Assembly: GCA_963796455.1 (NCBI GenBank)
Contig: CAWCLO010000007.1
Location: forward strand, 32,001 to 96,000
Reading direction: 5' to 3'
Source: Candidatus Sulfomarinibacteraceae bacterium
GTDB lineage: Bacteria > Acidobacteriota > Thermoanaerobaculia > Thermoanaerobaculales > Sulfomarinibacteraceae
Length of the DNA: 64,000 bases
Under the pieces are notes generated by a model. That model saw only the letters and a program-made list of their open reading frames with translations, was not told the origin of the DNA and searched no databases. Of the stretch, positions 443-35,623 are shown in pieces (the first letter of the stretch is position 1; each line of letters opens with the position of its first letter). A program made the position numbers and the translations under genes.

Positions 443-828
443 GACTCCTCCGTTGACCTGATTGACGTTAGCACGCACCGAGAGACAGGCAGCAGAAGCG
501 GCTCAACGACGAGGTCATGAATCACAATCGCTCTCGTTGTTGGGTTCGGCAATCCGCGCCACTGCTGTCCAGAACAAATCACCAGGTTGAGTTCCCCTAT
601 AGAAAACACAGAGTCTACCGATCGGTAATTGGCATTCCCGGTTCGTGGTTGCCCCTTGCCCGAATTGCAGCGGCAGCGACAGTGCCCAGCGAAGCGACAG
701 CGACAGTGCCCAGCGACAGCGAACAGTGAGCAGCGACAGGAAACGGCGACAGGAAACGGCGACAGGGACAGCGGTCAGGGACGGCGGTCAGTATCCAGCG
801 ACAGCGGTCAGGAGTACAGGCGACGAAG

Positions 829-967
829 TGGCCACCTCCGGGTCGTTCCAAGGAAGGGGTAAGCCGGTGGGCGGCCGATGTCAAGGACAGGCAGGGTGCA
901 GGGCATCCTTGACATCGGCCACCACACCGGCTTGAGGGTATGGGCATGAACGACCCGGAGGTGACCA
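829..967 (+). promoter_or_regulatory. Long nested hairpin covering the RBS/start region of the four-helix-bundle gene
   Basis: 829-848 pairs with 948-967 (19/20); 861-869 with 925-933 (9/9); 873-887 with 906-920 (15/15). Confidence 0.8.
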
Positions 968-1320
968 TGTCCAACGCCGCCACTAACCCCAACCTCGTTG
1001 CCCACTCGAAAGCTCTCGAAGCAGCCGGGATCGCGATCAAGCTTGTTATGAGGGTTCCTGCTCCGCTGAAGTCCATAGCCGATCAGGTGATCCGGTCGGC
1101 AAGTTCTGTCCCTGCTAACTTGGCGGAAGGGCACGGCCGAGTCGGTAAAAACCGGTCGAACCACTGGAGAATCGCCTACGCCTCGGCAAAAGAGGTCGAC
1201 AGCCACTTGCTACTCCTCGCCCACGCCGGGGCAATCAGCCCGAACCGAGCCAGTGAAGCGATGATGGCCTTCGATCAGGTCCGTGCCATGACCTGGCGGC
1301 TGTTGAACCCGAAAGTGTGA
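967..1320 (+). CDS. Four helix bundle protein (23S rRNA intervening-sequence protein / Avd-like family)
   Basis: Family motif DQVIRSASSVPANLAEGHGR...HWRIAYASAKEVDSHL; GGAGG at 957-961 favours ATG 967 over 940. Confidence 0.9.
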   Translation: MSNAATNPNLVAHSKALEAAGIAIKLVMRVPAPLKSIADQVIRSASSVPANLAEGHGRVGKNRSNHWRIAYASAKEVDSHLLLLAHAGAISPNRASEAMMAFDQVRAMTWRLLNPKV

Positions 1321-1437
1321 GCGCTGTTCGCTGCCGCTGATGACTGAACGCTGCCCCTGACTACTGTTCGCTGTTGCTGTCGCTGTCCCTGAACGCTGTC
1401 AGAGATTCTGTCTTGGACTGGAGTGCATCTGGGTATC

Positions 1438-1468
1438 CGATACCGATAGCGATTGCGATAGCGATCGG
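1438..1468 (+). repeat. Degenerate hexamer tandem repeat (CGATAG)n
   Basis: cgatac cgatag cgattg cgatag cgatcg; the reverse-complement form occurs at 14418-14456. Confidence 0.75.
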
Positions 1469-1522
1469 AATTTGGGATTCAAAAAACTCTTCAGATTCGC
1501 CGCCTGTTACACTCGCTCCAAC

Positions 1523-2509
1523 GTGTACGAAGCTGAATACCAGGCCGCCATCGATATCGTCGCAGAAGTCTGTGGCATGACCCGAAGCGCCCAGGAGCGG
1601 ATTGTCAGCGCAGGAGAATCCATTGCGAAAGACGACCGTTCGCCGGTTACCGTGGCGGATCTCGCCGGTCAGGTCATCGTGAGCCACCGGCTCCGTGAGC
1701 TTTTTGCGGATGACCCACTATTGGCCGAGGAGAATTCCGACGCCCTCGCAGAATCGACCTTCATGGCGCAACGGGTCATCGCGCTTGCACAGATGGCCGT
1801 ACCCGACCTGAACGTCATGAGCATGATCGACGCACTCGACCGGGGCAATCACCAGGGCGGCGGTACGGGCCGGTACTGGGTGCTCGATCCGATCGACGGC
1901 ACCAAGGGCTTTTTACGCGGCGAACAATATGCCGTCGCGCTCGCACTGGTGGACGGCGGCGAGGTGGTCCTCGGAGTCCTCGGGTGCCCAAACCTGGAAC
2001 CTCTGCCGAGCGACGGCAATGACGGCAGTGGCCGTCTGTTTGCAGCCCTTCGCTCCCACGGAGCCACGTCGCTGAGCTTGAACCGGGACAGACAGCAAGC
2101 GATCGCGGTGGACCGGATCACCGATCCTTCGCAGGCGGTCGTCTGCGAATCGGTGGTGGCCGCCCATGCTGCGCACTCGGTTCAGGGAAAAATCGCCGCG
2201 CGACTCGGAATCACCGCCGAACCATACCGAATCGACAGCCAATGCAAATATGCGGTTGTCGCCCGGGGGCAGGCATCGATCTACCTCCGCCTACCACGAG
2301 ACACCAGCTATCGCGAAAAGGTATGGGACCACGCGGCGGGGTTGATCGTGGTCGAGGAGGCAGGCGGCCGAGTCAGCGATCTCCACGGAAAGCCGCTCGA
2401 TTTCTCCCAGGGCCGCCATCTCGGCCACGGCAGCGGCATCGTCTGTACCAACGGAGTCCTCCACGATCAGGTCCTTGAAGCCTGCCGGGCCGAACTCGGC
2501 CTCGACTGA
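1523..2509 (+). CDS. 3'(2'),5'-bisphosphate nucleotidase, HAL2/SAL1-like (inositol monophosphatase superfamily)
   Basis: Motifs KDDRSPVTVAD, WVLDPIDGTKGFLRG, DSQCKY, EKVWDHAAG; GTG 1523 chosen as the likely start. Confidence 0.9.
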   Translation: MYEAEYQAAIDIVAEVCGMTRSAQERIVSAGESIAKDDRSPVTVADLAGQVIVSHRLRELFADDPLLAEENSDALAESTFMAQRVIALAQMAVPDLNVMSMIDALDRGNHQGGGTGRYWVLDPIDGTKGFLRGEQYAVALALVDGGEVVLGVLGCPNLEPLPSDGNDGSGRLFAALRSHGATSLSLNRDRQQAIAVDRITDPSQAVVCESVVAAHAAHSVQGKIAARLGITAEPYRIDSQCKYAVVARGQASIYLRLPRDTSYREKVWDHAAGLIVVEEAGGRVSDLHGKPLDFSQGRHLGHGSGIVCTNGVLHDQVLEACRAELGLD

Positions 2510-2534
2510 CTCCCGACTGCCGCACGAATCCGCC

Positions 2535-3184
2535 CACGGATCACACAGAACGACCCACCGATTTTTTTTGATCTCTCAACAGAAGACCGGGGCCTTCCTG
2601 CCAACGTCGGTTGCCGTGGATTTTCAACGCAAAGGCGCAGAGGCGCAGAGATGCCTGAGACCATCTGGGTCCAGTTGATGCTTTCGTGACACGGGCCGGG
2701 CGACAGCGACAGAATTCAGCGGCAGCGGCAGGGAGCAGCAAACAGGGGAGAATCAGCAATCAGTGTGCAGCGGCAGCGATCAGGAGCACAGGCGACGAAG
2801 TAGCCACATCCGGGTCGTTCAACGGAAGGAATAGCCAGTGGGAGGCCGCTGATGACTGAACGCTGACGCTGCCCCTGAACACTGTCCGAGACACTGTCTT
2901 GGAAGAGGGTGTGAATAGATGAAGGTTGCGCTCCCGACGCGATAACACAACTGCAAGGCAGAATCGGTGTGCCGTAGGCGCACCGGTCGGTGGGAAGCGT
3001 GGCGGCGACGAGCGCTCGCGCTCGGAGACGGCACGCTTCTCACCGGCGACAGGCGATCGAACGATCGCCTGTTGTTCTGCCGCCAAGCATGTCAACACCG
3101 TAAAATCTCGCCAACCGCGCCTGTGCGACTTTGCGTTCTTGGCGTTCTTTGCGGTTCATTCTGTGTTCTTCTGTGTGTTCTGTG
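2535..3184. repeat. Nested inverted repeat arms between convergent genes
   Basis: 2535-2550 vs 3169-3184 (14/16); 2626-2646 vs 3117-3137 (19/21); together they enclose copy B. Confidence 0.7.
2700..2903 (+). mobile_element. Gene-less relative of the four-helix-bundle element (copy B)
   Basis: Core 2781-2820 is 37/40 identical to 809-848; joins the A-left and A-right sequences at GCCG; ends in CTGTCCGAGACACTGTCTTGGA. Confidence 0.7.
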
Positions 3185-3306
3185 TGTCCGGCTTCGTCGC
3201 TCCGCGGCAAAGCCGTGAGGAGCCAGCTTTGCGTAGTGGCTTGGTGCTTTGGCGCCTTCGTGGTTGCGACGCCAATTTATCTGCGACGATCTGCGGTCGT
3301 GAGATG

Positions 3307-4770
3307 TCAGACGATCGGCGGCAGGACCGGGCCCGAATGCTCGAATTTGACGGCCCGTTTTCCGGTCGCGCAGGCCATGCAGGCAGGCTGAGACTTCAGT
3401 ACGAGTTCGACAAAGACCTGTTCCGGCATGTAAAAAAGCGCATCAACCCCGAGCTCGACCCGAATCTCTTCCACATCTCCATTGAATCGGGCCCCGATGA
3501 GCTCGCTCTGTGTGGGGGTGTTGATGCCCTGGAAACACGAGTCGATGACCACCGGCCACAGGGTGCCGAAATAGATCTTCTTCGCCCCGGCCGCGCGCAA
3601 GGCGCGCACGATCCGGGTGGCGTTGGTGCCCCGGACGATGCTGTCGTCCACCAGAAAGATCGATCGCCCTTTGACCGAAATCGCATCGACCCGGAAATCG
3701 AGCATCGCCGCTTCGTCCCGTGCCTCCTGGGTTTCTTCCATGAAGATACGGCCGCCGTAGCGGTACTTCGAGACCGGTGTCGCATATTGCAGCGCCGATG
3801 AATCGAGTTCCTTTTCGAGCTTTTGAGCAAAAGCCTCGGCGCCCGGAATCGGCGAGTGCGGAATCGGCACCACCATATCGATCTCTCTGACCAGATCGGG
3901 AGCCGTTTCGAGCACATGCGTCGCCAGCGACCGTCCGGCACGCCAGCGATAACTGCGAATCTTGTCGCCCATCATCTTCGATTCCACATCGGCAAAGTAG
4001 ATGAGCTCGAAGGCGCACGGAAGCTGGTCCCGTTGCAGCAGCACGCGTCGGTCGATTTCGAGATTGCGGTTGATGAAGAGGGCGGCTCCGTGCTCGACCT
4101 CATCTTCGACCTCGTATCCGTTCTGCTCCAGAGCGAGTGTTTCGGACGCGATCATGAGTGCTTCGCGGCCTGAGCGACTCCTTCGTCCGAGAACCATCGG
4201 GCGGAAACCGTGTGGATCGCGAAATGCAAACAAGCCTTCCGGAGTCGCAAGGACGGCGGAATAGGCGCCGGTTATCGCGTGCTGGGTCTCTTTGATCGCC
4301 CGGAAGACGATTTCTTTTTCTTCAGCCGTCGGGTCGAGACGGCGGTAGTGTTCAACCCAAAGAGCGAGCACTCGCAACAGAGCTTCCGCGTCACAGTCGG
4401 CTGCCAGCGCCTGGGATCGGTTCGCCAGCTCGCTTTCGATCTGCGGAACATTCGTGATGTGTCCGTTGTGGGCCAGGGCCAGAGAAGCGTGCGCGTCGAA
4501 GAAAGGCTGGGCGTTGTTGGTGCCGCCACCGCCATATGTTTTGTATCGGGTGTGGGCGATGCCCACGTCGCCCGACACCTCTCCCAGCTGTTTGAATATG
4601 TCGTCAGCCAGGCCTTCGCCTTTTTCCAATGAAAAGCCCCGGTGAACGGGGTCGAAAACAAAGAGACCGGCGTATGCCGGCCCGCGGTGCTGGAGGAAAT
4701 GCGCCCCGTTTCCAAGGTCGCCGACCACCGAGCGTCCGTTTTTACTGATGACCCCGACGATGCCGCACAT
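3307..4770 (-). CDS. purF: Amidophosphoribosyltransferase
   Basis: N-terminal MCGIVG, LQHRG, HTRY, AHNG, VDDSIVRGT, C-terminal CMAC; GGAGG RBS. Confidence 0.93.
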   Translation of the reverse strand: MCGIVGVISKNGRSVVGDLGNGAHFLQHRGPAYAGLFVFDPVHRGFSLEKGEGLADDIFKQLGEVSGDVGIAHTRYKTYGGGGTNNAQPFFDAHASLALAHNGHITNVPQIESELANRSQALAADCDAEALLRVLALWVEHYRRLDPTAEEKEIVFRAIKETQHAITGAYSAVLATPEGLFAFRDPHGFRPMVLGRRSRSGREALMIASETLALEQNGYEVEDEVEHGAALFINRNLEIDRRVLLQRDQLPCAFELIYFADVESKMMGDKIRSYRWRAGRSLATHVLETAPDLVREIDMVVPIPHSPIPGAEAFAQKLEKELDSSALQYATPVSKYRYGGRIFMEETQEARDEAAMLDFRVDAISVKGRSIFLVDDSIVRGTNATRIVRALRAAGAKKIYFGTLWPVVIDSCFQGINTPTQSELIGARFNGDVEEIRVELGVDALFYMPEQVFVELVLKSQPACMACATGKRAVKFEHSGPVLPPIV

Positions 4771-5023
4771 GCAACCTCCTCAGACGGGCACACTATAGCC
4801 CAGCTACCCGCCCGATGCTCGTTTCTTCATTCTGGATGGCCGATTGATGGTGTTGATGCATTTCCGACCCAAAAAACCCGAATTTGACATCTCGACGGCC
4901 TCCCAGCAAAACAACGAATCCTCACCTCATCGCCTTCTTCGGGAGGCCCCATGAATCGCGGTGATAACCTTGAAGTTGGTTCTCTCGCTAACGACCTGTC
5001 AACCAATAACAAAGGATTTGGTT

Positions 5024-5518
5024 ATGAGACGTCCGCACGCCGCCTGCAATCGTTCAAACCTGAGTCCGGCGATTCCGTTGCTCGTCTGCGCGGTGATGAC
5101 AATCACGCTCGGTGGTACCAACGAAGGCATTGCGAAGGACCCTCCAATTGTAATTCGAGGTTCGAGCACCCTGCAACCTCTGGCTGAGGTATGGGCCGAC
5201 GCTATTCGACGCGATTCGCGGTCAATTCGCTTCGATATCAACGGCACCGGCACAAGCGAAGGTATCGGGGATCTGCTGGCGGGACAGGCGGACATCGCCA
5301 TGGCGTCCCGGCCGCTGGAAGGCGCCGATTTCTCACGCGATAGAAATTGTGATCGAAAGATTGGACGCGACCTCGCCGCCGATCGTGAGGGTGGGAGCGG
5401 GGATCTACAGCAATTTCCGCGGCTCCCTGCGTTTCGGAGAAACCGCGGAATCAATGATCAAAGAAACTGGGTTCTACCCCGGTGTTCAGGTGGATGTCAT
5501 CGACGACTGAATTTGTGA
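5024..5518 (+). pseudogene. Truncated PstS-like phosphate-binding protein
   Basis: Signal peptide, then IRGSSTLQPLAEVWA...GTGTSEGIGDLLAGQADIAMASRPL; similarity stops near 5325 and the ORF is far shorter than a full PstS. Confidence 0.65.
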
Positions 5519-5540
5519 GATGCGGTGGTAGTCCGGTCAG

Positions 5541-6290
5541 TTACTGCCTTTCGATTTCGCCGGTCATCGGCACAAAGCGTACCGGGATCACGGACCGTTC
5601 TTCGAATCCATCCCCGGTGCGGGTGATGACCTTGAGTTCCTGGTAGAAATCGCCGACCGGAATCACCATTTTCGCGCCCTCAGCCAGTTGCTCGAGCAAT
5701 GGATCTGGAATCCTCTCGGGAGCCGCAGTGACGATGATTCCGTCGAATGGTGCCTCGGTCGGCCACCCGCCATAACCGTCGCCACACCTCACTTCAACCG
5801 ATCGGAAGCCGAGCGCGGCAAGCGTGTCCGCCGCTCGTTCACACAATCGCTGGCGGATTTCGATGGACCGTACCTCGACCCCCATTTGTGCAAGCACCGC
5901 TGCCTGGTAGCCTGATCCAGTACCGATTTCGAGAACCTTTTGTCCCGCCTCGACTTCCAGGAGTTCGGACATGAGGGCCACGATATAAGGTTGGGAGATC
6001 GTCTGCGAGTCGCCGATCGGCAAGGGAGAATCGTTGTAGGCACCCTCGCGGTAGTTTTCCGGGACAAATAAATGCCGCGGGACGCTTCGCAGACTCGAAA
6101 GAACCGACGGGTCCTTGACCCCTCGGGCCTCGATCTGTTGGCTGACCATCTCTTCGCGCTGCATCGTCCAGTCAGGCTCCGTCAATCCCGGTTGGGTTCC
6201 ACCGTCCGAATTACAGCCGATGACGGCCAGAATCGCAATCGAGCCCGCGGCCGCGAAACGAAGCGGGATCACGCTGCCGCCGGGCTTCAT
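5541..6290 (-). CDS. pcm: Protein-L-isoaspartate O-methyltransferase with a putative lipoprotein signal
   Basis: VPRHLFV, QTISQPYIVA, VLEIGTGSGYQAA, APFDGIIVTAA, VRFVPM; N-terminal ...AILAVIGC. Confidence 0.93.
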   Translation of the reverse strand: MKPGGSVIPLRFAAAGSIAILAVIGCNSDGGTQPGLTEPDWTMQREEMVSQQIEARGVKDPSVLSSLRSVPRHLFVPENYREGAYNDSPLPIGDSQTISQPYIVALMSELLEVEAGQKVLEIGTGSGYQAAVLAQMGVEVRSIEIRQRLCERAADTLAALGFRSVEVRCGDGYGGWPTEAPFDGIIVTAAPERIPDPLLEQLAEGAKMVIPVGDFYQELKVITRTGDGFEERSVIPVRFVPMTGEIERQ

Positions 6291-6644
6291 CAGGATTCTC
6301 CACCTTTCGCCGCTGCAACCGGGGTCGATGGTTCATGCGGCTGCTTCGTTTCCGAGCTTCTCCGTTGATCACGACGGTCAACCGGCTCTGAGCCATCCAC
6401 CTTTTCCACATGGTAGAACACCTGACCGAGATACTCCATCGCACCGCTGACCATGCAGTTTACATGCCGGTCCGGAGCCCAAGCTACGTTCCAATGCCTG
6501 GCTCTGCAAAATGTCTCCGCGCTGGTGGCAGATGGAGCTTTGGGCGTCCTCGATTTGGGACAAACGACCTGCAGTTCGGACAGTCTCCCGCGGTATGACC
6601 GCGGTTTCTCTCTGTTATGGGTGCAGAAGACCGAACTGAAGCGC

Positions 6645-6660
6645 TGGCACGGGCTTTGCT
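6645..6660 (+). promoter_or_regulatory. Sigma54 (-24/-12) promoter
   Basis: TGGCACG-GGCT-TTGCT, about 50 bp upstream of ATG 6710. Confidence 0.75.
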
Positions 6661-6709
6661 CTTCCCCTGGTTGACGACGGCATCAATCATCACCGTCGGG
6701 GAGGCATCC

Positions 6710-8155
6710 ATGAGACACCAAAGAAAACTCGCGTATCTCGCAGCCGCAATCATCGTGATCGGCGCTGCCGCGGTCGTCGAGGCCGGCGGCCACTTCGGTC
6801 TCTACGTCGGTGGAGGGGGTTTTGGAGTCTCGGTGGGAGTCGGTGACTGGGGTGTTCACACCCGATCGTGGGCCGATCCCCACTGGTCGCTCAACTTCGA
6901 AGCCACCCTTTCCGGCTATGGCGAATGGGTTTGGGTCGGAGGCATCGGACGGGTGTGGCGTCCCTGGGTGGCCGCCGGTTGGCAGCCATATACCCACGGC
7001 CGCTGGGTCCACACCGTCCACGGATGGAACTGGGTCGCTTTCGAGCCCTGGGGATACGTCCCTCACCACTACGGAAACTGGGCCTATTCGTCCTTTGGCT
7101 GGGTCTGGGTCCCGGGTTATTCCTATGTCAGTGCCAACGTCGTCTGGGTCCGCGGTGGCGGCTACATCGGTTGGTATGCATGCCCTCCCCGCGGCTGGAG
7201 TCACGCCGCGCGAGGCTTCCACCACGGCTACCGGCATGGATTTCAGGACGGCTATGACACCGGCTACAGGGACGGTTGGCACGATGCTCGATACGCAAAC
7301 TATGTGGATTGGCGCCACTTCGGATCGGACAACGTCTCGCACCACGTGGTGGACCACTCTCGCGCCTCGAGATCAAGGATCGAGAATCACGCGGCCGCTC
7401 CCTCGACGTCGGAAATCCACAGTCGAGGTGGCGCTCGGATGCGTGATGTTCCGGTGTCGCGGCGCACCGTCAGCATGGCCGGCAGAGAGATCACCATCGC
7501 CCGGCCCGAGGGTGTCGCAGCAAGCATCGAGCGCCACGCGCGAGACACGGTCAGTCGGACGTTGACACCCGACGCACTCGAGAGAAGACAACCGATGGTC
7601 CGCTCGCGCCCATCTGAAGCAACTGCCGCTGCATCCTCGCGCGGAGAATCTCTCAGAAAACCGCAACGACAGACCGAACCTCGTCCTGAAAGCGCCGATC
7701 GCGCGACAAGCTCGAGTCGGACAAGACAGCATTCGAGTTCGCTCGCCGAAGGCCGGCAACCAATTTCCGCCTCGAGATCGATCCAGTCACGACAGCGTCA
7801 GTCTGAACCCTCGGAGACAGGCGGCAGCAGCGAGACCGGGGTGTCGCGTTCCAACTCGTCCGTTGCGTCCGGTCGTCGACTCTCTGCCACAAGCAGAAGC
7901 ACCTCGCGGACACCTTCGGAACGATCGCGAGCAATCGAACGAAGCACGACATCACAACGCGATCGAGCTAGTCGGTCGATTGACTCGCGACGGCAGAATT
8001 CCCCGTCCGCCAGATCCAAACCGGAGGGCACGAGATCCTCTGCGCGCCGGTCAGAGAAAAAGCCGGCCGCCGAAAACGCGACCACCGCTCGGGCACGAGG
8101 CTCGAAGCCACAGAGCAAAGAAAAACCAAAACCGGAGGCCAAACGTCGGCGTTGA
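6710..8155 (+). CDS. Secreted Trp/Gly-rich protein (DUF6600-like) with a long Ser/Arg-rich disordered tail
   Basis: Signal peptide; LSGYGEWVW...WQPYTHGRW...EPWGYVPHHYGNW...WVWVPG; GGAGG before ATG 6710. Confidence 0.75.
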   Translation: MRHQRKLAYLAAAIIVIGAAAVVEAGGHFGLYVGGGGFGVSVGVGDWGVHTRSWADPHWSLNFEATLSGYGEWVWVGGIGRVWRPWVAAGWQPYTHGRWVHTVHGWNWVAFEPWGYVPHHYGNWAYSSFGWVWVPGYSYVSANVVWVRGGGYIGWYACPPRGWSHAARGFHHGYRHGFQDGYDTGYRDGWHDARYANYVDWRHFGSDNVSHHVVDHSRASRSRIENHAAAPSTSEIHSRGGARMRDVPVSRRTVSMAGREITIARPEGVAASIERHARDTVSRTLTPDALERRQPMVRSRPSEATAAASSRGESLRKPQRQTEPRPESADRATSSSRTRQHSSSLAEGRQPISASRSIQSRQRQSEPSETGGSSETGVSRSNSSVASGRRLSATSRSTSRTPSERSRAIERSTTSQRDRASRSIDSRRQNSPSARSKPEGTRSSARRSEKKPAAENATTARARGSKPQSKEKPKPEAKRRR

Positions 8156-8183
8156 GGCTCGAAGGGAAAGGGACAAAGACACA

Positions 8184-8226
8184 GATGCTCGATACTCGAT
8201 GCTGGATGCTGGATGCTGGATGCTCT
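8184..8226 (+). repeat. Heptamer tandem repeat (GATGCTG/GATACTC)n
   Basis: About 6 units; the same family occurs at 14335-14357, 24645-24738 and 35366-35392. Confidence 0.8.
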
Positions 8227-8228
8227 GG

Positions 8229-8788
8229 ATCCATACGTCGATTCCATTTCGGATAGCGAACAGGGACAGCGAATGGGATGGAGGGGTCGAGAGGCGGAAA
8301 TCAGCCATCAGCGTAGTGATTTCAGCGGCCATGGGACAGCGACCAGCATGTCACTTCTGGCGGAGCTCCGGCCTTTGTGGTGCGGCCGTCTCGGCCTGAA
8401 CGGTGAAGCCGGAAGGGGCGCAGCCACAACGGCTGTTCCTATGAGATGAACCACCCGGAGGAGGCTACTTCAGGTCGCCAGGACTCCTGATCGCTGCCGC
8501 CGAGCAGCGCGAGTCGCTGAACCGGGTCGCTGCTCCACTGTCGCTGCCGAAGGACGCTGTCGCCGCAGGATGACAATTCTGGAAAGGGAGCGGAATCGGG
8601 TCAAAGAGCCAACCGCGGCAACAGGATCATGTCAGAGCGGTGCGATTCGAAAACCACGAGATGCAGTTGCAACTAACATCAGGTGACGATCTGTTATGGA
8701 CTAGCAGTAATGCTGGAGATGAACAGTGGAATCCATACGTCGATTCCATTTCCGATCCCGATCCCGTTCCCGAATGGGCGGAGGGGCG
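8229..8788 (+). repeat. Direct repeat pair with an identical 22-mer ATCCATACGTCGATTCCATTTC (8229-8250, 8731-8752)
   Basis: Exact match, each followed by GAT, about three hexamers, CGAATGGG and GGAGGGG; the pair brackets copy C. Confidence 0.8.
8300..8617 (-). mobile_element. Gene-less relative of the four-helix-bundle element with a REP-like palindrome (copy C)
   Basis: Core at 8448-8489 (2-nt insertion); palindrome at 8375-8429; same junction sequences as copy D. Confidence 0.6.
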
Positions 8789-8834
8789 AAAGGGAGAACC
8801 GCACCTGAAGCCGCGTTCGTAATAAGGAGCGGGT

Positions 8835-8861
8835 ATTCCTAATTCCTAATTCCTAATTCCT
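8835..8861 (+). repeat. Heptamer tandem repeat (ATTCCTA)n
   Basis: About 4 units, ending about 20 bp before ATG 8883. Confidence 0.75.
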
Positions 8862-8882
8862 CCCGCGTGTTAGCATTCATCC

Positions 8883-9965: not shown

Positions 9966-9978
9966 TTGGAGATTACCG

Positions 9979-10935: not shown

Positions 10936-10977
10936 CCCGGATTTTTGGTGCCGCGGCATCACACTGATCCGACGATC

Positions 10978-11844: not shown

Positions 11845-11956
11845 CTCCTCTGCTCCTCTGCTCCTCTGCTCCTCTGCTCCTCTGCTCCTCTGCTCCTCTG
11901 CTCCTCTGCTCCTCTGCTCCTCTGCTCCTCTGCTCCTCTGCTCCTCTGCTCCTCTG
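11845..11956 (+). repeat. (CTCCTCTG)x14 tandem array
   Basis: 14 perfect units ending about 50 bp before the OPT start; preceded by AGAACCGTAC-N10-GTTCGTGATAAGG. Confidence 0.97.
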
Positions 11957-14083: not shown

Positions 14084-14154
14084 CGGCCCGGGCTGCAAGG
14101 AAAAAGGGAGAATCACTCGGCACCGATTTCTCCTGTATGGGAATGTCGCCTCCC

Positions 14155-14277
14155 GATGTCATCCTGAGCGCAGCCCCGCAGGGGCGTAGTCGAAGGATCT
14201 ATGGGATGGCCTGCTAAGACCTCGCGACCGCAGATCCTTCGACTTCGCGCCAAAGGCGCTTCGCTCAGGATGACATC
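14155..14277. repeat. REP-like palindromic element
   Basis: GATGTCATCCTGAGCG...GTCGAAGGATCT paired with AGATCCTTCGAC...CGCTCAGGATGACATC. Confidence 0.85.
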
Positions 14278-14543
14278 TTGAAAAGGCCCACCTCTACAGT
14301 TCCGGATGGCGCTAAAGGAAGAACGCCCAACACAATACTCGATACTGGATGCTGGATTCCGAACCAGGATGGCAGATGGGACCGGGGGTGGAGGGGCAGA
14401 GCACTGCTCGACATCCTCGCTATCGCTATCGCTATCGCTATCGGGATCGCTATCGAACGGCTGCGGTAGATACGGATCCGGAACTGGCGACAGGGGGACG
14501 AGCAGAACCGTACCCGAAACGTCGTTCGTGATAAGGGCAGAGT

Positions 14544-14699
14544 CTCCTCTGCTCCTCTGCTCCTCTGCTCCTCTGCTCCTCTGCTCCTCTGCTCCTCTGC
14601 TCCTCTGCTCCTCTGCTCCTCTGCTCCTCTGCTCCTCTGCTCCTCTGCTCCTCTCTCTGCTCCTCTGCTCCTCTGCTCCTCTGCTCCTCTGCTCCTCTG
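14544..14699 (+). repeat. (CTCCTCTG) tandem array, 19 units
   Basis: 13 perfect units, one 12-nt variant, then 5 perfect units; same upstream leader as the 11845 array. Confidence 0.97.
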
Positions 14700-14700
14700 C

Positions 14701-15207
14701 TCAGTCGGAAAGCGCCTCGCGCAATTCCATCAACAGTTCATCCGCCGTATCAAATACCCGGGGCATCGCGGTCGCCGTACCGGGTGGTGCCTCGAGGGAC
14801 CAGCTTTTCCAGCACCACACCTCTCTGCCGGTCTTGAGCGCCAGACCGATTTCTGAGAGCGTTCCAGGTCCTCCACCGAGGGCAACGCACAAGGTGGCCG
14901 AAAGCACGTTGATGGCATTCCGGGCATTCGCCATGCCGGTGTAGATCGGGAGGATGATCCAAGGGTTCGGATAGCCGGCCGCCGGATCCGAGTTCGGCAG
15001 GACTCCGATGGTGAGCCCTCCGGCCTCCACCGCGCCCCGTGCCGCCGCAGCCATGACTCCGCTGCCTCCACCGGTCAAGACCACCCACCCGGCCCGGGCC
15101 GCAATCGCTCCCACACCTTCCGCCAAAGCCATTTCTTCCTTGGATGCGGCGGCTGGACCGAGAACCGCGAGAATCGGGCTCGAAGTCACAGCGGATCGGA
15201 CGTTCAT
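14701..15207 (-). CDS. LOG family / TIGR00725-type Rossmann-fold protein
   Basis: VLTGGGSGVMAAAARGA, TIGVLP, TGMANARN, GGGPGTLSEI. Confidence 0.88.
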   Translation of the reverse strand: MNVRSAVTSSPILAVLGPAAASKEEMALAEGVGAIAARAGWVVLTGGGSGVMAAAARGAVEAGGLTIGVLPNSDPAAGYPNPWIILPIYTGMANARNAINVLSATLCVALGGGPGTLSEIGLALKTGREVWCWKSWSLEAPPGTATAMPRVFDTADELLMELREALSD

Positions 15208-25682: not shown

Positions 25683-25843
25683 GCCCCCCCCTCCTTGCAT
25701 CGAGACCCGAGACAACCGCAGCTACGATGTCGCCCGCAGATTGTCCCATCACCAAATTGAGGTGTCAAACTCAAATTGGACATGCCTCCAAGAAAACGAT
25801 ATCACAAGGTGGGTCAAGAGTCGCTTGAATTCGCGAACTTATC

Positions 25844-28261: not shown

Positions 28262-30768
28262 GAGTCCTCCTTGAGAAACAGCAATGCGGGCAGCAACGTG
28301 ATCCCGAGCAACGCCGTCGCGAGCGCACCCAGAATCGCTGCGGCGCCCACCGAACGCAAGCCCGGATAATGCGAGAGCACCAACGAACCAAATCCCACCA
28401 TGGTCGTCAGCGCCGCCACGGCGATCGCCTTGGCGGTTTCGGTCACCTGGCCGACATCGCCCGCGGTCTCGTAGAAACGGTGAAGAAAGTGAATACCGTA
28501 ATCCACACCGATGCCGACGATCATGGTCAAAACAAAAATGTTGAAGAAATTCAATCGAAGCCCGAGGAAGGCCATGCCTCCAAGCATCCAGACCATCCCG
28601 AGAAAAAGCGGCAGAAGCGCCAACAAGGCGCGGAGCGGGCCACCCAGATCCCACCACATGAGAATGAAAACAGCCACGATCCCGACCAGTGAGGCCTTGA
28701 TGACGTCGCCCCACACGATCTTGCGTAACTCGGCAGAGATGACGTTCGGCCCGGCAAGAATCGCCCCCGGGTGGCGGGCCACCACTTCGTGCAGGGCTGG
28801 TGAGGCGCCTCGCCGCCATTCTCCGACCGGAGGGTAGAGATACATTGCGGCCGAAACCTCATCATCGGCCGCCGCCACATAGCGGTCGACGACCCTGGCC
28901 AGAGGGGTGCCGGCAAGATCATCGAGCGAAAGTGGGTTTCTGCGACCAAGGGCGGTCGTCAGATGCTGGATCCCCTCGCTGAATGCGGCCGGGTTGAGAC
29001 CGCTCGAAACCAGAGCCTCGGCAAAACGATCCTCAAGCCCTTCGACCTCCGGTTCGGCCGCACGCAGGCGATCGATCAACTGTTGCTGCACATCGATTGG
29101 CGGGATGACTCCGGCAATGGTGTCGATCCCAACCAGATTCACACCATCGACCAGCTCTTCGAGTTCGGGCAGGATCGCGCGACACCGCGCCAACGCGTCG
29201 ACCTCGTCGGAACCGTCGAGCCGCAGGACCATCGGCGTGAATCGCAATTCGAATGCATCCATGATTTCCTGGCGAAGCTGGATCGCTCTGTTGTCGCCTG
29301 ACCTCATGTTGCGAAAATCGTCGTCCCACTCGAGCCCGCGAATGCCGTACGCAAAGACGAGGGTCACGACTGCCGCGAGAAAAACCGTGACCCGGGGCCG
29401 CCGCACGCTGGCCCTGCAGATCCCCTCGGCCCCGAATGAGTGGAGCCGGTGCGGCCTCACGTGGCCCTTCCAATTGGAGACGAAGGTCAACAGCGCGGGC
29501 AGCAGCACATAGACTGTGACGACGAGCAGGAGAATCCCGGTGCCGGTGAGCAATCCGAGTTCCCAGAGACCGGCAAAATCGGTCACCAGGAACGAAAAGA
29601 AAGTGGCCGAGGTCGTGACCGCGCCGAGCAGAACCCCAACACCGGTGTATCGCCCCATCGCGTCGACTGCGTCTTCATGAGACGCCCCGGACTGGCGTTC
29701 CTCGAGATAACGGGCATACAAAACGATGATGAAATCGATTCCGAGACCGATGACGAGACCACCGAATGCCGAGGTGAGCGAGTTGATCCGACCGAGGGTC
29801 ACGGCGGCAAAACTGAAGGTCAACGCGATGCCAGTCACCAGCGGAAAAAATGCATAGATCAGCGCCGCTCGGCTCCTGAAAGCGAGCAGGAAGAGCAGCA
29901 TCACCCCCGCCAACGACGAAACCAGCCCTACCACCATGTCCGAAGTGATCAACCTCGCGTCGTCGAGAGCTACGAGATAGCCACCGGTGAATTCGACTCG
30001 CGGCGCGGACCGCTCACCTGTCTCTTCGATCCACTCGGCCTGCAGTTCAGCCATTCGGATCAAGAGGCCAGCCGCCAACCGGCGGTCGAAGGCCAGATCC
30101 TGGGCCGGCCGTATGGGCTTGGCCATCATCAGCAGGAACTGACGGTTTTTGTCGATCAAACAACCGGTTTCGGGGTCGACCCGGACACCAACGCCGCCAA
30201 ACCGGACCCTGGCCAGGATGCGCGGCAGCAGCCCCATCGGATCGAGTCGGATGAGATCTTTTGTCACCAGGCTCTGAGGAGTCATGATCTGAGCCCGCAG
30301 CTTTGCAGCCGTCTCCTGGAGACCTTCTTCGTCGAGCCCTGCGAGGATCTCTTCGAGTTCCGCCGGTTCCAGGAAGAGCGTGGCTCGATCGAGGAGCGGC
30401 ACCGCCGCGTCGGCGGCGCTGTCGACCCGATACTCTACCCAGTCGATCATTTCCCAATCACGGAATGAGGAGGCGACCAGTTCGGCGAAATCGAGGGTGG
30501 TTTCGGTTGCGCGCTCCGGGTCGAGGTGGACAACGACCAGCAGGGTATCCACTGATCCAAAGCGCTCGACGGTCGTCCTGAATCCATCCACCACCGGGTT
30601 GTTTCGCGGCACCAGGGACAGGATGTCGGTTTCGATTTTGACCTGGAAGGCCAGGAGACCGGCCGCCAGCCAGGCAATTATGGCGGCAATCGCGGCGATC
30701 CGTGGGTGGAGGCGACCAAAACGAACCAGGAAGAGAGGCAGCCGCCGTGGCAGCAAGCCACGCCTCAC
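28258..30768 (-). CDS. MMPL/RND family exporter
   Basis: Two repeats with GLGIDFII and GIGVDYGIH; AALTTMVGFGSL; start placed at GTG 30768 overlapping the pgsA stop. Confidence 0.88.
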   Translation of the reverse strand: MRRGLLPRRLPLFLVRFGRLHPRIAAIAAIIAWLAAGLLAFQVKIETDILSLVPRNNPVVDGFRTTVERFGSVDTLLVVVHLDPERATETTLDFAELVASSFRDWEMIDWVEYRVDSAADAAVPLLDRATLFLEPAELEEILAGLDEEGLQETAAKLRAQIMTPQSLVTKDLIRLDPMGLLPRILARVRFGGVGVRVDPETGCLIDKNRQFLLMMAKPIRPAQDLAFDRRLAAGLLIRMAELQAEWIEETGERSAPRVEFTGGYLVALDDARLITSDMVVGLVSSLAGVMLLFLLAFRSRAALIYAFFPLVTGIALTFSFAAVTLGRINSLTSAFGGLVIGLGIDFIIVLYARYLEERQSGASHEDAVDAMGRYTGVGVLLGAVTTSATFFSFLVTDFAGLWELGLLTGTGILLLVVTVYVLLPALLTFVSNWKGHVRPHRLHSFGAEGICRASVRRPRVTVFLAAVVTLVFAYGIRGLEWDDDFRNMRSGDNRAIQLRQEIMDAFELRFTPMVLRLDGSDEVDALARCRAILPELEELVDGVNLVGIDTIAGVIPPIDVQQQLIDRLRAAEPEVEGLEDRFAEALVSSGLNPAAFSEGIQHLTTALGRRNPLSLDDLAGTPLARVVDRYVAAADDEVSAAMYLYPPVGEWRRGASPALHEVVARHPGAILAGPNVISAELRKIVWGDVIKASLVGIVAVFILMWWDLGGPLRALLALLPLFLGMVWMLGGMAFLGLRLNFFNIFVLTMIVGIGVDYGIHFLHRFYETAGDVGQVTETAKAIAVAALTTMVGFGSLVLSHYPGLRSVGAAAILGALATALLGITLLPALLFLKEDS

Positions 30769-31331
30769 TGCTCGTCCTCCAGTACAACGCTGCGGTTCTG
30801 CCAAAAATAAACAACCATCGAGGCGACGGTGAACATCACCGTCAGCCACAGGGCCAACAACCCGATCACATCCCACGTGTGGGAACTGAGCTTGAAGATG
30901 ACGTCCGGATTCAAACTGTAGATCAGGATCGAAACCGTGATGATCTGGATCGTGGTCTTGGCCTTTCCGAGCCAGTTCGCGGAAATGGCGATTCCCTTCT
31001 CGAGGGCGATCATCCGCAGCGCCGTCACCGCGAACTCGCGACCAACCACCAGGGTGACCATCCACGCCGGCGCCTGGTCAAGCTCGACCAGGGAAATAAA
31101 TGCGGCGCTCATCAACAGCTTGTCGGCAATCGGATCGAGCATTGCACCGGTGGTCGTGATGGTCTCGGTCCGGCGGGCTATAATTCCGTCAAGGGCATCG
31201 GTCAAGGCCGCCAACAAGAAAATGCCAAGACCCCAGTACTCCTTGTCAGGAACTTCGGTCAACAACACAACCACGAGGAGCGGCACGAGAAAGATGCGAA
31301 ACAATGTCAGCAAATTTGGAATATTCCACAT
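30765..31331 (-). CDS. pgsA: CDP-diacylglycerol--glycerol-3-phosphate 3-phosphatidyltransferase
   Basis: NIPNLLTLFRI, TDALDGIIAR, GAMLDPIADK, GREFAVTALR, GKAKT. Confidence 0.92.
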   Translation of the reverse strand: MWNIPNLLTLFRIFLVPLLVVVLLTEVPDKEYWGLGIFLLAALTDALDGIIARRTETITTTGAMLDPIADKLLMSAAFISLVELDQAPAWMVTLVVGREFAVTALRMIALEKGIAISANWLGKAKTTIQIITVSILIYSLNPDVIFKLSSHTWDVIGLLALWLTVMFTVASMVVYFWQNRSVVLEDEQ

Positions 31332-31469
31332 CTTCAACTCCCTCGGGGCCCGAATGACATCGGACGCCCTGCATCATACCGTTCGCCAGATAATTGTGGG
31401 CGCGATCTCGGGGTCCGATGATTCTAGCCGGGAAAGGGCCGGCCGTCACCTGGAGTCGAGAATCTCTCG

Positions 31470-32885
31470 ATGAGGGTCACCTCCCACTGCATCAATCATC
31501 CCTCGAAGGATGCCTCCACCCGCTGCCGAAGCTGCGGCAAATGGTTGTGCGACCAGTGTTTCCAAAGGTTCGGGACCCGCGTCTACTGCGATCGAAAATG
31601 CCACGTCCGAGGTCTGCTTCACGACTCACTCGGGAAAGCTCTCGATATTGCTCGCGGACCGGTACACGCCGCCTGGGTGATCGCGGTTGTCGCTTCGGCC
31701 TCCGCCCTGCTCCTGACCGTCGTCGGGATCATGGTCGCCGACCTTGCCGAGGTTCGGGCCGGGCTCGGACGGATCGAGGCGGCCCGTACTCAGCTCGATC
31801 CCGAGCTCTCCGCATCCTTTCAGCAGGACGAAAACGGCGTCAGGGTCGACATCGGCGGGCGGGCCGAATCCCGGGTCCTCGTCTTGGTTGACGATCGCCC
31901 TCTCGAGGTGGTGAACGTCGACGACAGTGGTCGCGCCTCTTCGTCGGTACTCGACCCATCGACCCCGACCGAGTCCATTCGAATCGTGCAACTGGCAGGT
32001 GACGGTCTCGATCTCGGCCGCCCGCCACTGCCCTCTCCGACCTCGACGGCGACAGCCACGGCGACCGTGGTTCCGACCGCCACGCGGCGAGCCACGGCGG
32101 TGCGGCAGGCGCGCACCGAACCAACACCTGCAAGTGCACCGCCGGTCCTGCAGATCGTCGGGGACGCGGGAGCCAGAATCGCCATCACATTTGACGGAAA
32201 CGCTTCGTCGAAGCGGACCGACGAACTCCTCGATATGCTCCAGGATCTCGATCTCCAGGTCACATTGTTCGTGACCGGGCAGTTTATCGAGAAGTACCCG
32301 GCTGTGATCCGGAGGACGGTGCTCGCCGGTCACGAGATCGGCAACCACACCTATTCGCATCCCCACCTGACGACCTATGCGGAAAACCGACGGCACGCTC
32401 TCAAACCAGGGATGACCCGGGAGAGGCTGCAACGGGAGCTCCGCAGAACCGAGGAAGCCTTCGAGGCCGTCACCGGCAGATCCATGGCGCCTCTCTGGCG
32501 ATCACCCTATGGTGAGGAAAACCGGACCCTGCGGGGCTGGGCACTGGAAATGGGATACCTCCACGTCCGCTGGAGTTCACTCCAGGGCGCATCACTCGAT
32601 ACCCGGGACTGGGTCGACGACGAACACTCCTCTCTGTACCAGAATTCGAACTCCATCATGGAACGGCTGCTCAAGTTCCCCAAGCTCGAGGGCGGTCTGA
32701 TCCTGATGCACCTGGCCACCGAACGGCAGGAGGCGCCATGGACCGAATTGCCGTCCTTCGTGAAGGCACTCAGGGATCGTGGTCTCGAACCGGTAGAGGT
32801 CACAACAATTCTCGAAGCCTCGCCCACCTGGCGATCATGGCTGCAACGCGCCCGGCAAAATCATGCCGCGAGGAACGGAGAATAG
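31470..32885 (+). CDS. Polysaccharide deacetylase (NodB/CE4) with an N-terminal Cys-rich zinc finger and TM anchor
   Basis: CINH...CRSCGKWLCDQC...C..KC; IAITFD, HEIGNHTYSH, WRSPYG, ILMH. Confidence 0.85.
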   Translation: MRVTSHCINHPSKDASTRCRSCGKWLCDQCFQRFGTRVYCDRKCHVRGLLHDSLGKALDIARGPVHAAWVIAVVASASALLLTVVGIMVADLAEVRAGLGRIEAARTQLDPELSASFQQDENGVRVDIGGRAESRVLVLVDDRPLEVVNVDDSGRASSSVLDPSTPTESIRIVQLAGDGLDLGRPPLPSPTSTATATATVVPTATRRATAVRQARTEPTPASAPPVLQIVGDAGARIAITFDGNASSKRTDELLDMLQDLDLQVTLFVTGQFIEKYPAVIRRTVLAGHEIGNHTYSHPHLTTYAENRRHALKPGMTRERLQRELRRTEEAFEAVTGRSMAPLWRSPYGEENRTLRGWALEMGYLHVRWSSLQGASLDTRDWVDDEHSSLYQNSNSIMERLLKFPKLEGGLILMHLATERQEAPWTELPSFVKALRDRGLEPVEVTTILEASPTWRSWLQRARQNHAARNGE

Positions 32886-32895
32886 GCTTGGGACC

Positions 32896-33370
32896 TGGGG
32901 TTTGAGGCTTGAGGCTTGGATCACTCGTGTCCAAGACAGTGTCTCGGACAGGATTCAGGGACAGCGACGGGGACCGGCTGGCAGCGTCAGGGTTCAGGGA
33001 CAGCGACAGCGAACGGTAGTCAGCGTCAGAGTTCAGTCGGCAGCGTCAGCAATCAGCGATCAGCGACCGGGACAGCGAACAGCACTCACATCTTCGGGGC
33101 TCCGGCCTTTGTGGTGCGGCCGTCTCGGCCGCACGGTGTGCGGGCGAGACGCCTACACCACAACGGCTGTTCCTTCCGCTGAATGACCCGGAGGTGGCCA
33201 CTTCGCCGACTGGAATCCTGATCGCTGCCGCCGCCGCTGTCCTCTGTCGCTGTTCCCTGTCGCTGCCCCTGATCGCTGTTGCCTGTCGCTGACGCTGCAA
33301 ATCGGGAGCGCGATCGGGTGTGGGCCGTTCGCGAACATCTCAAGCGGCAAGCCTCAAGCCTCAAGCCCCA
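32896..33370. repeat. Inverted heptamer arms (CTTGAGG)n...(CCTCAAG)n enclosing copy D
   Basis: 32896-32918 vs 33348-33370: 22/23 complementary. Confidence 0.85.
32930..33320 (-). mobile_element. Gene-less relative of the four-helix-bundle element with a REP-like palindrome (copy D)
   Basis: Core 33181-33220 (35/40); palindrome 33109-33163; gene-end remnant CCGAAGATGTGAGTGCTGTTCGCTG; right-end motif at 32930-32951. Confidence 0.7.
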
Positions 33371-34241
33371 AAAACTCGAGCGCTGCCTGCCGCCCCGCAT
33401 CGACAAAGTCGTCAAAGTGCTGCCACTCGGCCCACCGGGCACCTCCGACGTCGGGCCGGATCACGTGGGTCGCAGATCTGAGTTGGCGCCGCCGCAGGAG
33501 CCGAGCCGTCATCATCTGGGTCCGCATCATGGTATCGAGGACGAGATCATCATCGCGGAGCGGTGCCACATCCATCGAGACATCGACCGCAATCACAGGC
33601 CATCCCTCGTCGCGCGCCGCCACCGCGGGAACTTCGGCCACGACTCCGCCGTCCACCAGCAGCCGCCCGTCGACCCTGGTCGGAGGCACCATTCCGGGAA
33701 TCGCGCTGGACGCAGCCATTGCAGGCCGCAACGAACCTTGACGCAGCCTGACTTCCTCACCGCTCTCGAGATCGGTGGCGACCACCACAAAGGGTTTCGG
33801 AAGCTCCGAAAACTGGAGGTCCGGAATCAGGAAATCGAGGGCCTGCGCCAACGCCTGTTCGTCGAGCACGCTGCTGCGGTTCATCGCAAAGGAAACCACA
33901 ACCCGGTTTCTGATCTTGCGAGCGACCTGAATCAAAGGATGCTCGGTGGACGCCGTATGGGGAAGCCTCCCGATCGGCCGCACGGTGGGGATCAGCTCCC
34001 TCTCGAGCGCCTCTTTCCACAAATCGATGGCACGGGCCGCAGATCGATGAGCCAGGAACATCCCGCCGGCGATAGCGCCCATACTGGTCCCGACAATGGC
34101 TCGCACATCGAGACCCACCTCTTCAAAGACCTGGAGGACCCCAAAATGGGCAAAGCCGCGCGCTCCGCCGCCGCCGAGCGCCAGCACAGGTGGCCGCAGG
34201 CGCCAGGATGCCCTTTTGATCGAATGCCTGAATTTGCTCAC
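33354..34241 (-). CDS. Patatin-like phospholipase
   Basis: LALGGGGARGFAH, GTSMG, ASSAIPG, VDGG; start placed at GTG 34241 to avoid overlapping yqeB. Confidence 0.9.
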   Translation of the reverse strand: MSKFRHSIKRASWRLRPPVLALGGGGARGFAHFGVLQVFEEVGLDVRAIVGTSMGAIAGGMFLAHRSAARAIDLWKEALERELIPTVRPIGRLPHTASTEHPLIQVARKIRNRVVVSFAMNRSSVLDEQALAQALDFLIPDLQFSELPKPFVVVATDLESGEEVRLRQGSLRPAMAASSAIPGMVPPTRVDGRLLVDGGVVAEVPAVAARDEGWPVIAVDVSMDVAPLRDDDLVLDTMMRTQMMTARLLRRRQLRSATHVIRPDVGGARWAEWQHFDDFVDAGRQAALEFLGLEA

Positions 34242-34296
34242 AGGTTTCCGATCTCGTCGATTCAGCTCGGGTCGGCCCGTTTCGGCTGAATCGGGC

Positions 34297-35223
34297 TCAT
34301 TTCGCGGACTTCCGTTTCTTTGCCCCTTTCGCAGTCTTTGCAGCACTTTTGCGCTTTCGACTGCGCTGAGCATCTTCGGCCATCAACCCGAGCACCGCCT
34401 CCAACACACCCTCGGCCACCCGGCGTGACTTGTCCGAGATATGGTCGAGGTCATCGGTCCTGCCACGCGGATCCACATCGGCGATGCGGTCTCCCTTTTT
34501 CACCGGAACTCCGTCTCGGAGAAGGCCCCGAATGACTCCGGAGATCCGGGCCGTGACCGGGTAGGACGCATCAACCGGAACTCCCTCACGGAAATCCTCG
34601 ACGCCATAGACCGAAACGACCGTACCTATGCGTTCACCGCGCTGAACTTCCTGGCCGATTGTGTTCTGGGTGAAGAAGATCCCGTCGCGCACCGCCTTGA
34701 CGGCGCGTTCGTCGGCATATCCCATGATCTGAGCCGGAGGCTCGTCGGCGAGCCGCTCCCCGGTGTCTTCGAGCACCGCACCGACCTGCGGACCGCGGAC
34801 TGTGTCGACCACAGCATCACAGTCCTTTCGGGCCACGTATCCCGGCCCGAGTGCGATGACCACGGGAGCAATGCCCCGCTTGAGACCCCAGTTCTTTCGC
34901 AGCATGGCGGCCTCGATAAAGATCTTTGGCTGCCAGTCGAGCAGCACGTCTTCGAGATCGAGAGCGGCAACTGCGATCGCTCCTGAAGCGTTTGCTTCTC
35001 TGATCTCGTCGACGTCACGGGCAAATTTCCCTTTGACGCCTTGGACCGTGGTCGTGCCGTCGAGGATCGCTTCCGAAAAACAAACCTGACGTCGCACAGC
35101 CTTCGGGTACCGTCGTTCGAGCATGAGAATGTTGACGAACCCCTGCGTGTAGAGATGGTACGCAGTTCCGGATGCAAGCTCGCCCGCACCCCGGATCAAC
35201 ACTCGGTATTCGCTCGGCTTCAT
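34297..35223 (-). CDS. yqeB: Selenium-dependent molybdenum hydroxylase system protein, YqeB family
   Basis: VLIRGAGELASG, AVRRQVCFSEA, IALGPGY, GVIRGLLRDG, ADVDPR, ISDK. Confidence 0.85.
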   Translation of the reverse strand: MKPSEYRVLIRGAGELASGTAYHLYTQGFVNILMLERRYPKAVRRQVCFSEAILDGTTTVQGVKGKFARDVDEIREANASGAIAVAALDLEDVLLDWQPKIFIEAAMLRKNWGLKRGIAPVVIALGPGYVARKDCDAVVDTVRGPQVGAVLEDTGERLADEPPAQIMGYADERAVKAVRDGIFFTQNTIGQEVQRGERIGTVVSVYGVEDFREGVPVDASYPVTARISGVIRGLLRDGVPVKKGDRIADVDPRGRTDDLDHISDKSRRVAEGVLEAVLGLMAEDAQRSRKRKSAAKTAKGAKKRKSAK

Positions 35224-35410
35224 CCATCCTCCGTCAGACTTCGGAAACGGACCCGCTAGATCACGAAGCGCGATGTTCGGACGAGCTGGCCTGCGTTGGC
35301 ACATTCTAGCGTGGGGAAATCAACCTGTCACGTGAAGGATTGGAATACATGGTTTTTGATACATGATGCTCGATACTCGATACTCGATATTTGATGCGAA
35401 ATTCAGGATT

Positions 35411-35623
35411 CAGCACTCATTTCGCCGGGTTCAACAGGCGCCAGATCGTGGCACGGTCCTGATCGAAGGTATTCATCGTGTCACGGGCGGCCGCCCACCG
35501 GCTACCCATTCTGTTGAACGACCCGGAGGCGGCCACTTCGTCGCCTCGACTCCTGACCGCTGCCGCTGGACGCTGCCGCTGTGGCTGCAATCCGGGCACG
35601 GGCATGGGGCAACCGCGAACCGG
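35411..35623 (-). mobile_element. Internally deleted four-helix-bundle element keeping the 3' end of the gene (copy E)
   Basis: Core 35516-35555 (37/40); encodes ...MNTFDQDRATIWRLLNPAK* versus ...MMAFDQVRAMTWRLLNPKV* in copy A. Confidence 0.8.

Follow-up and report, generated by a model that had tools for sequence, protein, structure and literature searches.

The DNA analyzed here (the window) is a 64,000-nucleotide stretch of the genome of a Candidatus Sulfomarinibacteraceae bacterium (assembly GCA_963796455.1, contig CAWCLO010000007.1, positions 32,001 to 96,000), in which five copies of a dispersed element are found, one of them with an intact gene for a four-helix-bundle protein of the IVP family. 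Judged from its sequence features, the element is quite probably a non-autonomous derivative of an IS4-family insertion sequence (IS), which carries an older IVP cassette as cargo and is likely moved in trans by an IS4 transposase. Its outer layer belongs to a familiar class, that of IS4 derivatives that lack autonomy and carry a passenger gene (a mobile insertion cassette, MIC, or a MITE, a miniature transposable element with inverted repeats), because the same pair of ends bounds intact IS4 elements. A first-pass annotation of the window had proposed a helper-mobilized family with non-autonomous derivatives, and this proposal is borne out by IS4-type ends, a 9-bp target duplication, species-specific expansions and mostly empty orthologous sites. 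It had also put the family forward as its best candidate in the window for an undescribed system, unless a catalogued IS or MITE family should explain it. A known family, IS4, accounts for the outer shell, which is thus not new, whereas the inner cassette is left unexplained by it and is the layer to which the claim of novelty still applies.

The complete element, copy A, measures 866 bp end to end. Searches with the ends, core and gene, together with flank alignment, place it at 560..1425 on the forward strand, to which all positions of this copy refer, rather than at 638-1417 as first proposed. Terminal inverted repeats (TIRs) and a target duplication had been described as not visible, and both are present: IS4-type TIRs of 18 bp lie at 560..577 and 1408..1425, and the 9-bp target copies lie at 551..559 and 1426..1434. 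The duplication is hard to see by eye at copy A because the left target copy has decayed to a 5/9 match with the right one. Across the family the TIRs are imperfect, with a consensus that is complementary at 15 of 18 positions. Inward of the left TIR follow a left-end module (578..659), a degenerate arm of 6-7-base repeats (660..811), a 40-nucleotide core (809-848), an inner hairpin with compensatory changes across congeners (864..935), the IVP gene (967..1320; 117 amino acids from the likely start) and a right repeat arm that is inverted relative to the left one (1324..1400). The left-end module has a weak likeness to the matching end of a congener's IS4, with a score of 47.5 set against a mean of 27 and a maximum of 50.5 in 300 shuffles.

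Evidence for transposition comes from the flanks. Among the 77 of 93 end pairs for which both termini were reached, the nine bases to the left and right of the element share 0.79 identity, compared to 0.51 when shuffled (z=17). The same register holds for the 25 elements whose flanks contain no repeat array (0.70 versus 0.31, z=11), and no other duplication length from 2 to 18 is significant there. Duplications of 2 bp or 16 bp were considered and rejected, since the peaks in these registers are confined to places where 7-base arrays produce them. The preferred target is AT-N5-AT, and a heptamer array adjoins an end in 35 of the 77 elements; conversely, 87 of 162 such arrays touch an element end. 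By a crude gene call, the loci are intergenic and enriched in convergent gaps (26/68 versus 454/1997). The arrays are not made by the element, given that the heptamer pattern is abundant in congeners lacking IS4-type ends (371, 233 and 164 matches in the genomes labeled G015, G031 and G004). Similarly, AACGTT arrays are abundant in congeners with few ends of the ISL3-type shell described below, and were rejected as a product of that shell. Thus, the arrays must pre-exist.

When GTDB genomes were searched for exact matches to the right end, at least 101 stretches were recovered, and in several of them the same end pair bounds elements of 1.41-1.58 kb, at least six of which have 9/9 duplications among the matches listed. 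DUF4372 and DDE_Tnp_1 domains occur in five of the nine open reading frames (ORFs) submitted from these longer elements, and all three of the five that were tested pass the IS4 model NF033592. In the congener G017, an intact IS4 of 1411 bp (L170) has one end that matches the left TIR at 18/18 positions, and its protein reads by eye as Y-2-R-3-E-6-K, the YREK motif. The ends and the 9-bp repeat of the element also fit the rule given for IS4Sa in the available text of PMC2266710, namely ends of the form CA------T with 8-10-bp repeats. Such IS4Sa-like elements (DUF4372 plus DDE_Tnp_1; L076, L105 and L170) share the 18-bp end pair and the 9-bp duplication with the element, which differs from them in lacking a transposase and in its unrelated interior. 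In agreement with the first-pass annotation, no transposase was found among the 36 window ORFs scanned against Pfam. A search for an autonomous copy in the studied genome (G000; a 5.0-Mb sediment bacterium whose assembly is 90.5% complete) gave four left-right pairs longer than 1 kb (1964, 2172, 5502 and 5503 bp), which were rejected because each reuses the end of a shorter pair.

The family has expanded greatly in this genome. BLASTN with copy A finds 234 loci and profiles of the ends, core and gene find 228, so that the genome-wide count is about 230. There are 59 full-length IVP genes, one with an internal stop, and a further six with frameshifts, leaving 58 intact genes among 65 that are near full length. 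Read depth in four sequencing runs reaches 131-300 over the IVP gene versus roughly 1-6 on unique flanks, which fits many copies, although the best of these runs may stem from the source sample itself and relatives may be present in the others. No RNA run was among those listed as holding the element. Many copies in G006, a relative, are nearly identical as whole elements and have perfect 9-bp duplications, and seven copies in G008 are identical. Also, the IVP genes cluster by species, with one clade each for G000, G008 and G014 and 18 of 20 G006 rows in a single clade, in a tree whose relatives' copies are the best-scoring matches, a choice that favors similarity.

Comparison of orthologous spacers points in the same direction, as most of those in relatives are empty while some sites are filled in both genomes. 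In the five congeners from which they were retrieved, the spacers that correspond to copies A, B, D and E contain neither the gene nor the core nor an end. In the reverse test, which left out 28 of 80 loci for want of an anchor or of synteny, 42 syntenic sites are filled in G006 or G034, of which 25 are empty in G000 and 17 are shared. At the shared sites the orientation is the same in eight cases and opposite in nine. In a smaller earlier sample, 3/6 sites had been shared for G034, each time with matching orientation, while G006 had given one remnant among five. We read the shared sites as independent insertions into hot-spot spacers.

Gene-less derivatives outnumber intact copies and carry target duplications of their own. 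Recurrent deletion junctions join reference position 280 to 536, and position 279 to about 651. A doublet of repetitive extragenic palindromic (REP) sequences lies inside 70 of the 228 loci and is of the type that flanks a gene resembling REP-associated tyrosine transposases (RAYTs). In G034, a 388-bp element has the same ends and an unrelated cargo. From the gene-less, REP-bearing and foreign-cargo elements it follows that the cargo is exchangeable and that the gene is not needed in cis for duplications to arise. The IVP protein is likely a passenger, unneeded for each jump. As separate observations, two RAYT-like genes (L027 and L028, at C4:210157 and C1:952748 of G000) are flanked by REP hairpins, of which there are 240 genome-wide, 121 of them inside loci of the element.

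The inner cassette has a fixed order: a repeat arm, a covarying stem over the ribosome-binding site, the IVP gene and an inverted arm. The gene product matches TIGR02436 and PF05635 with scores over both cut-offs, as expected from the four-helix-bundle identity first assigned to it. The core had been regarded as a free motif, a view that does not hold, as the sequence of its 3' half (829-848) recurs in reverse-complement form over the Shine-Dalgarno/ATG region (948-967), and this half is predicted to cover the ribosome-binding site. Because of this pairing, position 967 is the likely start; GGAGGT lies just 5' of it, and other in-frame ATGs occur at 940 and 946. Together with the inner hairpin, the core pairing forms a nested stem in which 96.6% of cells pair across 20 sequences. 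Locus L221 was left out of alignment A2. Compensatory change is seen in 18 of 44 stem pairs, higher than in any of 500 shuffles and than in all slid controls, although this covariation is somewhat overstated because the structure was derived from the same alignment and the sequences are related. Furthermore, a long terminal stem enclosing the IVP ORF is predicted (z=-9.4, 20 shuffles). The sole Rfam match was a sub-threshold miRNA, which was taken as chance.

Selection on the IVP gene is strong in its shared history, with a pairwise ratio of nonsynonymous to synonymous rates (dN/dS) of 0.14, and weak in individual copies, where changes private to one copy give a nearly neutral ratio of 0.63. 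The analogy with Avd of diversity-generating retroelements (DGRs), to which its family is related (PMC10053308), suggests that the protein would most probably bind the structured 5' RNA of its cassette. A single-sequence fold prediction (pLDDT 70), useful for confirmation only, best matches 2GSC and 2RLD (E of about 0.004-0.03) and matches DGR Avd more weakly.

The same cassette lies within different ends in G008, G014 and G017. In 16 of the 20 copies examined in G008 and G014, both GG-type ends are present with an 8-bp duplication, and an intact 1303-bp ISL3 element with such ends adjoins a cassette copy in G017. Ten congeners have many ends of this type, while their numbers in G000 and G006 do not rise above background, which makes the ISL3 shell likely the older of the two. 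Multi-copy cassettes with no evident ends are found in G003, G013 and G018. The pairing of an IVP gene with inverted short-repeat arms extends further still, to unrelated IVP genes. The four other IVP genes of G000 each have such arms of their own. Among 29 top-matching IVP loci of the phylum (L197, with a short flank, having been left out of 30), 17 have inverted 7-9-base arms by a strict test and 26 by a loose one, compared to 0.8 and 4.7 in mispaired controls. Arms were also found at 16 of 34 IVP loci on viral contigs, chosen after 12 of 46 were set aside as near-duplicates or for short flanks, and at 3 of 6 plasmid loci fetched from 23 matches, while only 2 of 400 ordinary control ORFs have them. 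On three cyanobacterial plasmids (L300, L301 and L303), an IVP gene with arrays sits between cas genes (cas6-cas4 and cas10-cmr3).

One rival view is that the inner cassette of arms, stem and gene is itself selfish, that the IVP protein takes an active part in its propagation, perhaps by binding single-stranded DNA or the folded transcript, and that the IS ends serve only as vehicles that are captured repeatedly. The presence of one cassette in two kinds of shell, the compensatory changes in its stem, the low pairwise dN/dS, the recurrence of arms at phylum, viral and plasmid IVP genes and the multi-copy cassettes outside evident ends all argue for it. We nevertheless consider it unlikely, given that gene-less derivatives are in the majority and form their own duplications and that private changes are nearly neutral. 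Moreover, the copies that lack ends in G013 and G018 are old (63-80% identity) and three retain remnants of ISL3 ends, so they may be decayed shells, and no catalytic function for the IVP family was found in the literature examined. The mean identity of the G003 copies is distorted by indels and was disregarded. In a different account, the shells are old residents, and cargo passes from shell to shell, and from one repeat array to another, mostly through gene conversion, while transposition now contributes little. Copies are indeed mosaic: among 65 common sites, linkage (r2) drops from 0.17 to 0.03 over some 60 bp, and the four-gamete test is failed by about 80% of site pairs; the relatives also carry different cargo at the 17 shared sites, and the failure to find the transposase in G000 or G006 would suit this account. 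Orientation is random at the shared sites, however, and ISL3-shell sites coincide with G000 sites equally often (4/10), both of which fit hot spots, and the nearly identical G006 elements with perfect duplications speak for recent movement, leaving gene conversion as a distinctly improbable main route.

Spread by a RAYT, or as a DGR-like retroelement, is by now largely refuted and can be given very little credence. The REP doublets inside the loci share their type with the hairpins around the RAYT-like gene L027, and the relation of the IVP family to Avd, with its weak fold match, could also be cited in its favor. Yet the REPs are internal to the element rather than its bounds and are missing from the gene-bearing copy A, and none of six Y1 transposase loci has the element's ends, so that HUH mobilization was rejected as well. 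A retroelement link fares no better: RVT_1 (PF00078) has no match in the G000 assembly, while the control was positive in 3 of 14, and changes show no adenine bias, with singletons per site of 0.27 for A, 0.38 for C, 0.28 for G and 0.34 for T. Similarly, one intron reverse transcriptase query found no match within 3 kb of the 34 viral IVP loci, and the 9-bp duplication fits DDE chemistry.

Several observations weigh against trans-mobilization by an IS4 transposase, the reading preferred here. Searches did not recover the cognate transposase from the G000 assembly, which is 90.5% complete and whose single DDE_Tnp_1 gene has ends different from those of the element, nor from G006 despite the near-identical copies there, and it is present in only one of 25 genomes of the genus. 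That one IS4, L170, has flanks that are inverted rather than duplicated. About 40% of the relatives' filled sites are also filled in G000 against a background of 9.6%, a degree of sharing that inherited shells with swapped cargo would also give. No precise empty allele was obtained, no strain being close enough, and reads from the four sequencing runs contain no joint bridging an empty site. Among the 59 full-length genes, both ends are in standard order for 32, one end is present for 21 and none for three; a single gene has the opposite orientation to its two ends, and for two genes the end on either side is of the right type. Finally, the pairwise dN/dS and the high proportion of intact genes are unlike those of a decaying passenger.

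If the element is indeed an IS4 derivative with an older cassette inside, its history might run as follows. The cassette likely first resided in ISL3 ends, and IS4 ends would have captured it anew in the lineage to which G000 and G006 belong. An IS4 transposase, either missing from the assembly or since lost, would bind the element ends, make a 9-bp staggered cut and move the shell in trans into heptamer arrays, with repair or replication presumably raising the copy number. Internal deletions and REP insertions might afterwards produce gene-less subfamilies, while recombination between copies may shuffle variants and recombination between inverted arms may flip the interior.

The five window copies that had been reported are confirmed, and the genome-wide search with ends, core and gene finds exactly these loci in the window and none further. 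The core recurs with three mismatches at 2781-2820 (+) and 35516-35555 (-), where 100 shuffles predict no occurrence, and the weaker matches at 8448-8489 (-, with a 2-base insertion) and 33181-33220 (-, 35/40) are present as claimed. Describing the four partial copies as deleted is correct in part, as in copies C and D a REP-type doublet replaces the hairpin and gene. Copy B (2700..2911, +) consists of an arm, the core, a deletion of hairpin and gene, the right arm and the right TIR (2894-2911), and its left TIR was not found. Copy C (8255..8709, -) has a decayed left TIR and left module, the arm, the core, a REP-type insert and the right arm, and has lost its right TIR. Copy D (32922..33320, -) has an arm, the core, a REP doublet (33105-33167), the right arm and the right TIR (32922-32939); its left TIR was not found, and it is flanked by inverted heptamer arrays. 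Copy E (35410..35623, -) runs from the end of the left module through the arm and core to a deletion, with neither TIR found, and retains the last 19 codons of the IVP gene at 35417-35476, as the first-pass annotation had noted.

Other repeats accompany these copies. Copy B sits within a second dispersed composite family (2940-3260), the two parts of which occur at 33 and 28 loci with about 80% identity and for which no clear protein could be made out. Copy C has a direct repeat, some 24 bases long, on both sides (8230-8255 and 8730-8755), including the side where the right TIR is missing. At 14090-14703, a TGTCATCCTGAGCG-type palindrome is combined with hexamer and octamer arrays into a composite, portions of which match 119 loci across the genome. 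Solo arrays of 7-8-base units lie at 8835-8855, 11845-11956, 35369-35389, 38610-38651, 62266-62321 and 62928-62955, and some of their units match the arms of other IVP genes in G000.

Additional mobile elements were seen outside the window. The only DDE_Tnp_1 gene of G000 (L230, C7:291107-291601) lies in an element of 1.39 kb whose inverted ends are perfect and bear no relation to this family. Three copies of a 1.7-kb element (C7:285081-286809, C7:279901-281564 and C6:37096-38825 of G000) carry a long ORF that resembles an IS91-type transposase. A group II intron reverse transcriptase gene (L090:962-2257) lies within an element that has the same IS4-type ends; the remaining copies of this element in its genome measure about 300 bp. 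IS4-type right ends also occur at 22 sites in G008, a genome in which the examined IVP copies have ISL3 ends.

The nearest known relative of the element as a whole is MIC231, an IS4-family cassette of the Bacillus cereus group that likewise has two IS4-type inverted repeats and a passenger gene with no transposase, and for which trans-mobilization has been shown (PMC6199540). The likeness extends to a size within the 0.7-3 kb range and a conserved stretch beside one end, according to the available text of that source. Unlike MIC231, the element follows the IS4Sa rule rather than that of IS231, reaches about 230 loci per genome and carries an IVP cassette that has a stem and inverted arms of its own and that is also found in ISL3 ends. 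BrickBuilt of Porphyromonas gingivalis is similarly a high-copy, intergenic, non-autonomous MITE with internal tandem repeats (PMC4596501), and the element differs from prokaryotic MITEs of this kind in carrying an intact, conserved protein gene. REP-targeting IS elements, REPINs and RAYTs also involve insertion into abundant intergenic repeats (PMC1525189, PMC3116915), but the element inserts into heptamer arrays and carries its REPs as passengers, not as ends.

On the protein side, intervening sequences (IVSs) of 23S rRNA with an S23/IVP ORF share the protein family and have terminal inverted repeats that form a long stem around the ORF, and the Coxiella IVS has heptamer repeats upstream of its ORF (PMC4990558). 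IVP insertions are also scattered in the rRNA genes of candidate phyla radiation (CPR) bacteria (10.1101/2024.02.27.582315). The window copies, by contrast, lie between protein ORFs, in high copy and inside IS ends. DGR Avd has a related four-helix fold and is a pentamer that binds structured RNA (10.1101/2023.10.23.563531), whereas neither a reverse transcriptase nor adenine-biased change was found for the element. Inverted heptamer pairs have been noted in Xanthomonas with no link to a gene, and, in the portion of the source available, heptamers in bacterial spacers are said to have had no detailed literature by 2015 and no mobile-element link (PMC4692102). No description of the IVP-inverted-array link or of this element was found in the mainly open literature, although supplementary MITE catalogues could list its ends, and the main text of a 2026 non-coding survey mentions neither (10.64898/2026.10.21.760802). 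What thus appears to be undescribed is the cargo, the fact that two IS families captured it, and the general architecture of an IVP gene with arms.

A cassette that is amplified in two unrelated IS shells and yet stays in frame is unusual for a passenger gene. A broader and tentative proposal, which we regard as possible but rather unlikely, is that IVP genes with inverted 7-9-base arrays are widespread, undescribed minimal selfish cassettes, whose Avd-like protein would bind folded RNA or single-stranded DNA and promote their spread. If so, solo heptamer arrays in bacterial genomes would be landing pads or remains of such cassettes, one of which, in this genus, would have captured transposon ends twice and thereby reached dozens of intact copies, and 23S rRNA IVSs, perhaps along with DGR avd genes, would be special cases. 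Because the gene, RNA stem, arms and a matching transposase are all defined, transposition assays with and without the IVP protein and binding assays would be direct. The family therefore offers a handle on two old questions, namely the function of S23/IVP proteins and the over-representation of heptamer repeats in bacterial spacers.

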